DNA of 64,000 bases from Escherichia coli (GTDB lineage Bacteria > Pseudomonadota > Gammaproteobacteria > Enterobacterales > Enterobacteriaceae): NCBI RefSeq assembly GCF_051903065.1, contig NZ_CP178440.1; one strand, given 5' to 3'. A program made the position numbers. Position 1 is the stretch's first letter. The number at the start of each line of letters is the position of its first letter. Positions 52,201 through 55,200 of the stretch are shown here, piece after piece.

Positions 52201-55200
52201 ATTGTTAACGACTGGCAGGATGCAGATACACTGGAAAAAATACTGCTTGTCAAACTGTATCTGAAGACGGTTCTTATTCTGACAGTGGTAAGCGTTGTTG
52301 TCTTGTATCTTTCGTCAGATAAGTTTATGCCTGTTAAACGCAGGAAATGAGTCTGGTGGTTCTCATAAATATAACTGTGTGTGCATGTGTACAATATAAG
52401 TAAAGGTGCGTTATGGGATTTTTCTCGTTTTTACGAAAGATAAGTAATAAAGAAAAAGGGGTGGTTATCTATGAGAAGCAGTGGTTCTCACTGCTGGAAA
52501 AGGTGAGTGCTTTTGATGAGGTCAGACAATGGGCTGAAAGTAATGGTGGAGCATATTATCCTCTGCTGGAGTGTCGTCGGCTTACAGACAGTGAAAATGT
52601 CAGGAAATCAGAGGATATACTGAACCGACTGGAGTTTATTGACAGAAGATTTCGGGAATTCATCAGCATTATGTCTGAACATATTAATAATGATAAAACT
52701 AAATCCATGTGGGAGAGGGAATTGTCTGAATATCCACCGGAAAAAATATACCAGGTCCGGAGAGAGGGAGAACATCTGTCATTAAAAAATTATGGTGATG
52801 ATATTACTCTGAACAGAGATACCGCCGTGGCTACGGTGCAGATTACTGTCAGCAGAAAATGCATTACTCAGGAAGAAATGGATGAATTATATGCATTGTC
52901 TGAGAGACTGAAAGAAAAGTGCGCCGGTAATTAAATTATATCACTGTGCCGGGAGATGATATGAGCCGGAAAATATTTGAACTTTTTGCCCTGACAGCAG
53001 GACTGTTTATTTCTGCCCACGCTTCGGAAAATGTGAATACACCCGAAAACCGCCAGTTCCTGAAGCAGCAGGAAACACTGAGTCAGCAGTTACGTGAAAA
53101 ACCGGACACACAGCTGCAGGCATGGGCAGAACAGCAGGTCAGGGCGAATCCCCTTCAGCATTCCGATAACCAGTTTCTCGATGAACTGGTCCGTAAACAG
53201 CAGGCTGCTCAGAAGGATAAACCACAGCAGGGTGCCGTGTATTTTGTGTCGTTTTCCATACCCGAAGAGGGGCTGAAACGGATGCTGGGAGAAACCCGGC
53301 ACTACGGTATTCCGGCCACACTGCGGGGTATGGTGAACAACGACCTGAAAGCCACGGCTGAAGCAGTGCTGTCTCTGGTGAAAGACGGTGCGACCGATGG
53401 TGTTCAGATTGACCCGACGCTGTTTTCACAGTACGGCATTCGCAGCGTGCCGGCTCTGGTGGTGTTCTGCAGCCAGGGGCACGACATCATCCGGGGAAAT
53501 CTGCGCGTCAGACAGGCGCTGGAGAAAGTGGCCGCCACAGGAGACTGCCGGCAGGTGGCTCAGGGACTGCTGGACGGCACCGGGGATAAGTCGCAATGAG
53601 TTTACCTGCAGGCTATTACCGGATTGACCCGGACATCCGTGCACTGGTGGCCGCGATGAACGTTCACGGATTTCGTACATATGCGTCCTGTCAGGGGCAT
53701 GGTTTCCCTGTTACAAAGCTGCCGCCTTATATCGCCTTTGCCTGTCCGGTAAAAATGGCTGCCCTTCTGGAGCAGCGACTGCGGCAGGATGCTGAATCAG
53801 CAATACCACGTCTGACATGGGGATGGTCGGTGAAGGGGACTTTTAACAGTGATTTTCAGCTTTGCTTCCGGCTTCAGCCTGAAGGCCCTCATCACTGGTA
53901 TCACCGGTACTGTCGCCGCTCACTGCGTGCAGACTTCAGGACGCTGGTCCGATTAGTGAATCCGTAAATCTGTTCCCGTTAAGGAGGCATTGATGGCGCT
54001 GACAAAGAAACAGCGGGAAAAACTGCGTATGAAATTCGGTGGCCGTTGTGCGTACTGCGGCTGTGAACTGCCGGAGAAAGGATGGCATGCCGACCATGTT
54101 CAGGCGGTGCTCCGCAAGTCAGAGCAGTGCATGAAGGCTGCAGAAAAGCGCATTTTCAGGCTGAAATCCACCGGTGATGTTTTCAGACCGGAGGCCGACT
54201 GTCCGGAAAACCTCGTCCCGGCCTGTGCGCCGTGCAACCTGCTGAAAACAACATATTCGCTGGAGATGTTCAGAACGCAGGTGTCCCTGCAGGTTGAACG
54301 GGGGCGAAGAAGCAGCGTGAATTTCAGGACCGCAGAACGGTTCGGGCTGATTCAGGTGGTGAACAAACCAGTCGTGTTCTGGTTTGAGCAATATCAGAGG
54401 GAGAGTGAGGTATGAAACGTCTTCTGCCATTGCTGCTGGGGCTGGCAGTCAGTGTGGCACAGGCTGACAGCAACAGTGATTACCGGGCGGGTTCTGATTT
54501 TGCCCGTCAGATTCAGGGGCAGGGTACAGGCAGTATTCAGGGCTTTAAGCCACAGGAGAGTATCCCCGGCTATAACGCTAATCCGGACGAGACAAAATAT
54601 TACGGTGGTGTGACTGCTGGCGGGGATGGCGGCCTGAAAAATGACGGCACCACGGAATGGGCGACCGGTGAAACCGGAAAAACTATCACAGAGTCATTCA
54701 TGAACAAGCCGAAAGACATTCTGTCACCGGATGCACCGTTCATTCAGACCGGCAGGGATGTGGTGAACAGGGCTGACAGCATTGTAGGAAACACAGGCCA
54801 GCAGTGTAGTGCACAGCAGATAAACCGCAGTGAATTTACAAACTATACCTGTGAACGGGACACGATGGTGGAGGAGTTCTGCACACGGACTGCCAGGATC
54901 ACCGGAGACTGGAAATACACGGATGAATATCGTGAGGTGACGATACCGCACTCACAGTTCCGGTTCAGTATGAACGGGCTGAAACTGGTGTTCAGTGTCA
55001 CGGCTCCGGTAACCGGTACAGTGGAAAGTGCATCATTGTCTGTATACGCCGCTTTTTTCTTCCTGAATTCTCGTTATACCTTCATGAATTCAACGTTCAA
55101 TGTTGGCCTGGTAAACGGGCAGTCGGGTACTTTCCCCTTGTCCGGGGCGACAGGTTTGCAGGTGACACAGGGGCAGGTACTGACCGGCAGTGGCTGTACT

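Follow-up and report, generated by a model that had tools for sequence, protein, structure and literature searches.

Two accessory genes at the trbC–traN junction

The window analysed here, i.e. the whole stretch of 64,000 nt from Escherichia coli (assembly GCF_051903065.1, contig NZ_CP178440.1; all coordinates are those of the whole window), carries an F-type transfer operon. Two accessory genes lie in it between trbC and traN: orf123, which belongs to an uncharacterised family of conjugative elements, and a putative zinc-finger nuclease gene of the HNH (beta-beta-alpha-metal) type, referred to below as HNH. The gene order at 51–57 kb was traU, two small open reading frames (ORFs), trbC, orf123, HNH, traN, trbE and traF. 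This region was 100% identical to pHN7A8 (NC_019073) and to many IncF plasmids of E. coli, Klebsiella and Salmonella, and it is a pHN7A8-type IncF transfer region. Both accessory genes already have names from the Prokaryotic Genome Annotation Pipeline (PGAP), "hypothetical protein" for orf123 and "HNH endonuclease signature motif containing protein" for HNH.

The junction is tightly packed on the plus strand. trbC, which encodes the F-type pilin assembly protein (52961–53599; NCBIfam NF010290, E=1.7e-126; start as set by PGAP in pHN7A8), ends with its TGA at 53599 in an ATGA (53596–53599) whose ATG at 53596 starts orf123. orf123 (53596–53967, plus strand, 123 aa) stops with TAA at 53965–53967. 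It is followed by a spacer of 25 nt holding the strong Shine–Dalgarno sequence (SD) AAGGAGG (53981–53987, plus strand; sequence inspection), and then by HNH (53993–54415, plus strand, 140 aa). The TGA of HNH (54413–54415) forms a second ATGA (54412–54415) with the ATG of traN at 54412. The gene for the mating-pair stabilisation protein, traN (54412–56262, plus strand; NCBIfam NF009011, 1362.7 bits), has its ribosome-binding region and SD within the 3' end of HNH. The original prediction had described the 123-aa ORF starting across the trbC stop and the overlap of the HNH stop with the traN start, and both were confirmed. It had given HNH 141 aa, the length obtained from a TTG start at 53990; the ORF and its motif stood, and the length was corrected to 140 aa. 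The ATG at 53993 is the better start because it lies 5 nt after the SD and is used by PGAP. An SD resembling AAGGAGG also precedes HNH in pSLT-like plasmids and in a plasmid of Salmonella serovar Milwaukee.

No sigma-70-like promoter or intrinsic terminator was found on the plus strand between 52000 and 55000, and there was no match to an Rfam RNA element. An internal promoter, terminator or RNA element was ruled out on these grounds, and both genes are therefore expected to be transcribed from the tra operon mRNA. The search for direct or inverted repeats flanking the cassette gave only chance-sized matches (≤15 nt), which ruled out a transposon-like or site-specific insertion. On inspection, neither protein sequence had a signal peptide, unlike the periplasmic neighbours, so both proteins are predicted to be cytoplasmic.

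Both genes are under purifying selection. We compared nonsynonymous (dN) and synonymous (dS) divergence and their ratio (omega). For HNH, the window and pSLT-like copies gave dN 0.057, dS 0.75 and omega 0.08, and the window and phage g341c copies gave dN 0.091, dS 1.55 and omega 0.06. The overall range of omega was 0.05–0.08 for HNH and 0.11–0.18 for orf123. The corresponding values were dN 0.034, dS 0.80 and omega 0.04 for traU, dN 0.183, dS 1.22 and omega 0.15 for trbC, and dN 0.135, dS 1.51 and omega 0.09 for traN. Against other phage homologues of HNH the synonymous sites were saturated, with amino acid identity still at 62–81%. A chance pair of ORFs is excluded, as both genes are conserved under purifying selection and the segment recurs in identical form in hundreds of plasmids; both genes are real and probably functional.

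The two small ORFs between traU and trbC encode 102 aa (52042–52350, apparently a membrane protein) and 173 aa (52413–52934). Neither had a match in NCBIfam, PHROGs or PADLOC. Their GC content was 0.35–0.42, compared with ~0.55 in the flanking tra genes, and they therefore look like a more recent foreign insert. In pSLT-like plasmids, a single ORF of 100–102 aa is the only one at this spot.

The HNH protein and its phage relatives

The signature CxxC...HxDH...CxxCN that the original prediction had read from the protein was intact in all catalytic and zinc-binding residues. The motif comprises C19-x2-C22, H32-A-D34-H35, N73 and C78-x2-C81-N82 and was invariant in 17 of 17 aligned homologues, which came from IncF, IncHI2, IncHI1B and MOBH plasmids and from seven phages. 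It was also kept in full, including the general-base D34-H35 dipeptide of HNH proteins, in 117 of the 120 closest homologue clusters; the three exceptions were single point changes. Both CxxC pairs (C19, C22, C78 and C81) were invariant, as in the zinc-finger HNH subclass. The same was true of N73 and N82, and the second half of the motif aligned to 'N..PAC..CN' of 4h9d. Moreover, a C-terminal module, 'SVNFRTAERFG...PVVFWFE', was invariant across the 17 homologues.

In profile searches, the HNH protein matched phrog_2118 ('HNH endonuclease') with 8.7e-58, followed by phrog_2214 (3e-5) and phrog_144 (5.5e-4). It also matched 'endonuclease VII' PHROGs (phrog_1035, E=4e-10; phrog_2914, E=1e-6). 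Taken together, the HNH and 'endonuclease VII' matches beyond phrog_2118 spanned 4e-10 to 1e-3. The NCBIfam model TIGR02646 gave 21.2 bits (cut-off 52.15), the retron HNH model of NCBIfam gave a weak HNH-level match, and the PADLOC matches were weak and at motif level (PtuB and PDC-M01B, E at least 5.7e-4). PDB sequence and profile searches found no significant match among solved structures; the nearest was the Geobacter HNH protein 4h9d, which was non-significant and aligned over both motif halves. The 140 aa contained no detectable DNA-binding module, whether NUMOD, AP2 or another. From the motif residues, the PHROG HNH families and the sub-threshold NCBIfam and PADLOC HNH matches, the assignment as an HNH-type nuclease gene is reasonable.

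The invariant catalytic residues and a dN/dS of about 0.07 show that HNH is not an inert remnant, a possibility that the original prediction had raised against its own reading. A related idea is that the HNH frame stays open only because traN is translationally coupled to it. This would fit the stop/start overlap, the traN SD inside the 3' end of HNH and the F plasmid, which has no HNH and is known to be transfer-proficient. However, coupling needs an open frame only and leaves the omega of ~0.07, the invariant catalytic residues and the C-terminal module unexplained. The same residues are conserved in phages, where traN is absent, and we regard an inert passenger as highly improbable.

The HNH family is mainly a phage family of lambdoid nin and early regions. 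A tblastn search with the HNH protein returned 179 phage records. The top phage matches, at 81–87% aa identity, were gp24 of the P22-like phage g341c (ea region) and proteins of the E. coli siphophages Bas77–80 and HC6. Klebsiella, Sasha-like, Drexlerviridae and Pantoea phages matched at lower identity. When one genome per species was scanned, 43 of the 44 HNH-family loci were outside tra operons, and those that were examined belonged to lambdoid prophages, with the gene between the replication genes and Q. The neighbours in phages and prophages included NinG/Rap, RusA, NinB/Orf, DNA methyltransferase, Mom-like and ParB-like genes. Across 32 loci, the neighbours were very diverse and mostly singletons, which ruled out a conserved partner gene.

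Terminase-associated packaging of the HK97 gp74 type was ruled out as a general role. Within the Bas77/HC6 phage group, a terminase gene was nearby only in the Bas77 record; HNH is in early or nin regions in P22-like, Sasha-like and Drexlerviridae phages and in lambdoid prophages, and the plasmid has no terminase.

The sole tra-operon locus of the species scan was CAAGKF010000127.1, a 30-kb IncF contig filed under a metagenome-assembled genome of Lachnospiraceae. It carries traU, trbC, orf123, HNH, traN and traF at 91–99% aa identity (HNH 99%). Mis-binning of an enterobacterial plasmid contig is almost certain here.

HNH relatives were also found in non-tra regions of IncHI2, IncHI1B/FIB and MOBH plasmids. 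The IncHI2 version has a 36-aa N-terminal extension, and a DUF6012 gene came after it in both plasmids examined (3879–4412; 4523–5135), so HNH and DUF6012 are a possible conserved pair in IncHI2 plasmids. The synonymous distance between the g341c copy (locus 3501–3923) and the pSLT copy (dS 0.49) was smaller than that between the window and pSLT copies (dS 0.75). In the Salmonella plasmid variant P0075, the HNH protein has C-terminal residues of the phage type. The dS values and these residues suggest an exchange of HNH between phages and plasmids within Salmonella.

The orf123 family and the history of the junction

Single-sequence searches with orf123 gave no match, including those in NCBIfam, PHROGs and PADLOC. 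A profile of 17 homologues retrieved 453 cluster representatives. Of these, 186 reached E ≤ 1e-10, and some are fused into longer proteins. All relatives in the AlphaFold database were labelled 'uncharacterized'. orf123 is part of a large, unannotated family in conjugative plasmids and integrative and conjugative elements (ICEs). Its motif, T28-Y-A-S31-C32-Q-G34-H35, corresponds to a family signature T-x-A-S-C-x-G-H. Among 145 representatives examined, 108 bore the motif, and its last position was His in 107 of these. G34, W77 and D113 were invariant in an alignment of 50 sequences. D11 was at least 90% conserved in close homologues but fell outside the nearly invariant columns of that alignment.

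A weak link was seen to the TYW3/Taw3 family. The orf123 family profile matched 2qg3 with E=0.0058, over 'D.dI..L...N....T.SC.G', and Pfam TYW3 gave weak matches for 5 of 50 family members. TYW3/Taw3 proteins are defined by (S/T)xSSCxGR, a His and an N-terminal Asp; the Asp, the Cys and the Arg are essential (PMC5311493). The Asp is invariant and serves SAM binding, the His is invariant at the end of strand 3 of the RAGNYA domain, and the fold has three domains (N-terminal extension, RAGNYA and SHS2). The signature is not present in orf123. Its Thr, Cys, Gly and second Ser are retained along with a candidate Asp, but the essential Arg is replaced by His and the first Ser by Ala. With a looser pattern, 102 of 127 family matches had the same Ala. 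The candidate Asp is D11, in the 'ID' of 'IDpkI', which aligned to 'VDfdI' of 2qg3; by this alignment it may be equivalent to Asp25 of SsTaw3. Compared with TYW3/Taw3 of solved structure (PDB 1tlj, 2dvk, 2drv and 2qg3), orf123 is ~65 residues shorter, probably has no SHS2 domain and occurs in conjugative elements. To our knowledge, Bacteria have no wybutosine pathway. The protein would therefore best be called TYW3-like and not a TYW3. We tentatively propose a distant relationship to the TYW3/Taw3 methyltransferases, which depend on S-adenosylmethionine (SAM); this link is new here.

Within conjugative elements, the orf123 family acts like a small gene that roams. In an IncFIC plasmid, traW and traU are separated by a relative, and stops and starts overlap there. 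Another one, in an Enterobacter plasmid, lies downstream of an ISL3 transposase in the interval from traF to a trbB-like (TraF-family) gene. Distant relatives occurred in ICE-like contexts by TopoIII, SSB, AcaB, PilI or TraI_2_C genes; in the ICE-like loci, the orf123-family gene was directly 3' of the topoisomerase III gene. Positions of family members within their loci were 2986–3381 in CP057981.1 and 6001–6444 and 5001–5657 in two further loci.

Each of the two genes is stable without the other, and both single-gene states are common. HNH without orf123 was stable in thousands of Salmonella plasmid contigs, and orf123 without HNH occurred in AR_452-type plasmids at trbC–traN as well as at other tra junctions. 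In profile searches over every fetched locus, the adjacency of the two was confined to the IncF trbC–traN lineage. No homology between orf123 and HNH was found (hhalign probability 0.2%).

These results bear on the toxin/immunity pairing considered in the original prediction and, more generally, on a two-gene module in which HNH cuts unprotected nucleic acid and orf123 provides the modification or neutralisation. In the lineage of the window, the two genes lie side by side and are co-translated, orf123 is a possible distant relative of a methyltransferase class, and some phage HNH homologues are directly after a DNA methyltransferase gene or before Mom-like genes. However, pSLT-like plasmids keep HNH alone after deletion of orf123, orf123 has no HNH beside it in plasmids of the AR_452 type or at its other tra junctions, the families were never adjacent at any other locus examined, and orf123 has no counterpart of the Arg essential in TYW3. 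Such a module is very unlikely, and the pairing of the original prediction was not borne out. A more specific version, which we regard as a long shot, is that orf123 represents a new bacterial branch of the TYW3-type (class IX) fold in conjugative elements, with T-x-A-S-C-x-G-H as the active site and DNA, tRNA or SAM as substrate, and that it pairs with the phage-derived HNH as a pilus-timed modify-and-cut module in the pHN7A8 lineage. If true, the module could, for example, shield donors from pilus-dependent phages or attack unmodified rival DNA.

The integration into the operon is old, as had been predicted. The GC content of orf123 and HNH (0.53–0.58) was the same as that of the tra genes. 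HNH homologues at 88–91% aa identity were extremely common in Salmonella, where pSLT-like plasmids have HNH in exactly this place between trbC and traN; it overlaps traN in the same way, and orf123 is missing. The HNH dS of 0.75 was similar to the traU dS of 0.80 between window and pSLT-like copies. A recent foreign acquisition of the cassette was ruled out by GC content and dS. Between the window and pSLT-like plasmids, identity was 77–82% at the 3' end of trbC, 82–88% in HNH and 79–83% at the 5' end of traN, with no step at the HNH/traN boundary. This smooth identity is a pattern that points to vertical co-descent and not to repeated invasion. The overlaps, which had been read as a sign of age, are weaker evidence, as start/stop overlaps of 4 nt are a habit of the HNH family in its phage operons (about 20 of 32 loci).

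The pSLT-like plasmids keep the first codons of orf123 behind the trbC stop, and the plasmid of Salmonella serovar Milwaukee has remnants of ~45 nt from its 5' end and 105 nt from its 3' end. Judged from these remnants, the common ancestor of the pHN7A8-like and pSLT-like lineages had the pair, and the pSLT-like lineage lost orf123 by a later deletion. Within orf123, a patch at 53741–53860 was only 77–82% identical to pSK1144, with 97–100% identity on both sides, and therefore looks like a short recombination tract.

Four states of the junction were found: both genes, HNH only, orf123 only, and empty. The empty state is that of the F plasmid, in which trbC and traN overlap as ATGA. AR_452, an F-like plasmid with both flanks 98–99% identical to F, has an orf123 homologue and a replaced HNH. 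The position of HNH is occupied there by a 73-aa ORF (NZ_CP030329.1, locus 3365–3586, minus strand) that encodes a zinc ribbon (CxxC...CxxC) and a transmembrane helix. Also exchanged were the final ~35 nt of trbC and the TraN signal peptide (a different, longer region; NZ_CP030329.1, locus 3600–3700), which points to block replacement. Accordingly, sequence comparison identifies the junction as a recombination-prone accessory slot. In PLSDB, 3,642 plasmids matched a trbC–traN query; as rough frequencies, 854 of them had a full-length close HNH, 688 had orf123 and 538 had the arrangement of the window. HNH was thus patchy, in about a quarter of the matching F-like plasmids. The cassette was found in 308 of 5,426 complete E. 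coli genomes, nearly always plasmid-borne.

A patchy distribution is also what a selfish, free-standing homing endonuclease would leave, one that cuts the trbC–traN junction of co-resident F-like plasmids without the cassette and is copied by repair. The insertion is exact between two conserved genes, block exchanges at the junction reach the 3' end of trbC, and the family moves between phages and plasmids, with a dS of 0.49 between g341c and pSLT against 0.75 between window and pSLT. However, the protein is nearly identical at unrelated sites (the tra junction, the P22-like ea region, nin regions and Drexlerviridae early regions), which is hard to square with site-specific recognition, and a DNA-binding module of the kind searched for above was not detected. 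Nor was there a co-conversion tract of elevated identity beside HNH between window and pSLT-like plasmids, where descent appears to be vertical. Long-term purifying selection and rare decay are unlike a cycle of gain, decay and loss. Hence, the homing-type gene of the original prediction is at best weakly supported, and we consider it improbable.

Possible roles and comparison with known systems

The best explanation, in which our confidence is evenly balanced, is that two unrelated accessory genes have long resided at a permissive junction and that HNH is an active DNA-nicking or structure-selective nuclease. Translation of orf123 would be coupled to that of trbC, HNH would be translated from its own SD, and traN would be coupled to HNH. 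With transcription from the tra operon and coupled translation, both proteins would be made only in transfer-competent donors. There, the HNH protein may act in the cytoplasm as a sequence-nonspecific or structure-selective enzyme that nicks or cleaves DNA. It would serve the element's own DNA transactions, in a recombination or junction-processing role like that of its nin neighbours in phages, and would be neither a site-specific homing enzyme nor a toxin. orf123 may be an independent nucleic-acid- or SAM-binding protein.

A nuclease acting on the element's own DNA is favoured, though not decisively, over arms-race or homing functions by the near-invariance of the protein across unrelated elements and insertion sites, and by the residence of the family among phage junction-processing genes. 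In addition, the C-terminal module is conserved throughout, which hints at a shared substrate or a shared partner in the host. An identity of 81% despite saturated synonymous sites, together with this module, argues in the same way for a universal substrate or partner and not for a locus-specific target.

Several points weigh against this explanation. The Pfam HNH profile PF01844 was not significant (E=0.27 and 2.1 as two halves; 0 of 17 family members), with the sub-threshold score being due to an insert of ~37 aa that splits the motif between His and Asn. The similarity to the endonuclease VII family was modest. The beta-beta-alpha fold was deduced from the motifs, and an AlphaFold2 model from the 17-sequence alignment was too poor to use, with a predicted local distance difference test score of 57.4 and values <50 over the motif regions. 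Guilt by association with the nin recombination genes is weak because the neighbours are very diverse. F has no HNH, yet it transfers well, so conjugation as such does not require HNH. The searchable literature yielded no biochemical or genetic data on either protein. Finally, a role in conflict, be it defensive or offensive, accounts for the data almost equally well and is a serious rival.

In such a role, which takes up the weapon against incoming DNA of the original prediction, HNH would be made together with the pilus and would attack DNA entering pilus-bearing cells (male-specific phages or rival plasmids) or degrade the DNA of competitors. Its expression is tied to the tra operon, the protein has weak HNH-level matches to PtuB, PDC-M01B and the retron HNH model, and relatives are found in plasmid accessory regions and moron-rich phage regions beside DNA-modification genes. 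However, the PADLOC and NCBIfam matches were far under the family thresholds and reflect a generic motif only. PADLOC found no significant defence-system component with partner genes for HNH and no match for orf123. There is no partner ATPase or sensor gene and no conserved two-gene system around the HNH family, and very strong purifying selection with near-invariance across hosts and elements is unusual for arms-race proteins. We consider a conflict nuclease unlikely on balance.

The host plasmids include pHN7A8 (F33:A-:B-), related IncFII plasmids with KPC and CTX-M, and the pSLT-type virulence plasmids. As carriers of resistance and virulence genes, these rank with the most successful. A gene for a cytoplasmic nuclease in the pilus-assembly block, conserved as tightly as essential tra genes, would imply an unrecognised activity at the DNA level in donors. 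Nothing in current models of F-type conjugation is overturned. Searches of the literature gave no record of the orf123–HNH pair, of PSLT094.1N or of any nuclease encoded in F-like tra operons, and a comparative survey of F-like transfer regions mentions neither a nuclease nor an endonuclease. Both genes are already annotated and common in databases; the most original outcome is the tentative TYW3 link. The wider return may likewise come from orf123, whose family comprises several hundred unannotated clusters and is tentatively linked to a rare methyltransferase fold.

The closest known relatives are the stand-alone PHROG 2118 phage HNH proteins (gp24 of Salmonella phage g341c, those of Escherichia phages Bas77–80/HC6 and Klebsiella phage VLCpiS10a, and gp76 of Salmonella phage Sasha), for none of which a functional study was found. 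They are of the same family, with 66–87% aa identity over the full length, and share the CxxC...HxDH...N...CxxCN motif, the invariant C-terminal module and the frequent start/stop overlaps with neighbours. The phage genes are in early, ea or nin regions, whereas the window gene is inside the operon of an F-type type IV secretion system (T4SS), coupled to traN. An orthologue with 88–91% aa identity is PSLT094.1N, a gene of pSLT-type Salmonella virulence plasmids that is mentioned in the note for phage c341 gp24; it shares both the trbC–traN location and the overlap onto traN. The pSLT type differs by the loss of orf123, of which the first codons or, in the serovar Milwaukee plasmid, 5' and 3' remnants are left.

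The zinc-finger HNH nicking enzymes and T4 endonuclease VII (4h9d; PF01844, PF02945) have the same two CxxC pairs around D-H, and an Asn directly after the second CxxC. The window protein differs in the insert of ~37 aa between His and Asn, in scores below the Pfam thresholds and in the additional conserved C-terminal module. Phage free-standing homing endonucleases are represented by T4 Mob/Seg and HNH enzymes of the I-HmuI type. HNH resembles them as a small nuclease gene between conserved genes with a patchy distribution among related genomes. It differs in having no detectable sequence-specific DNA-binding extension, in its near-identity across unrelated sites, and in its apparently vertical inheritance at the site under strong purifying selection.

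The F tra operon has non-essential small ORFs of its own, such as trbA, trbE, trbF, trbJ and artA. Like these, orf123 and HNH are short, interleaved with essential T4SS genes, often overlapping and variably present in F-like plasmids. They differ in that their products are predicted to be cytoplasmic, enzyme-like proteins with relatives beyond F-like plasmids. The original prediction had also considered an exclusion mechanism; the predicted cytoplasmic location, without a signal peptide, sets both proteins apart from TraS/TraT.

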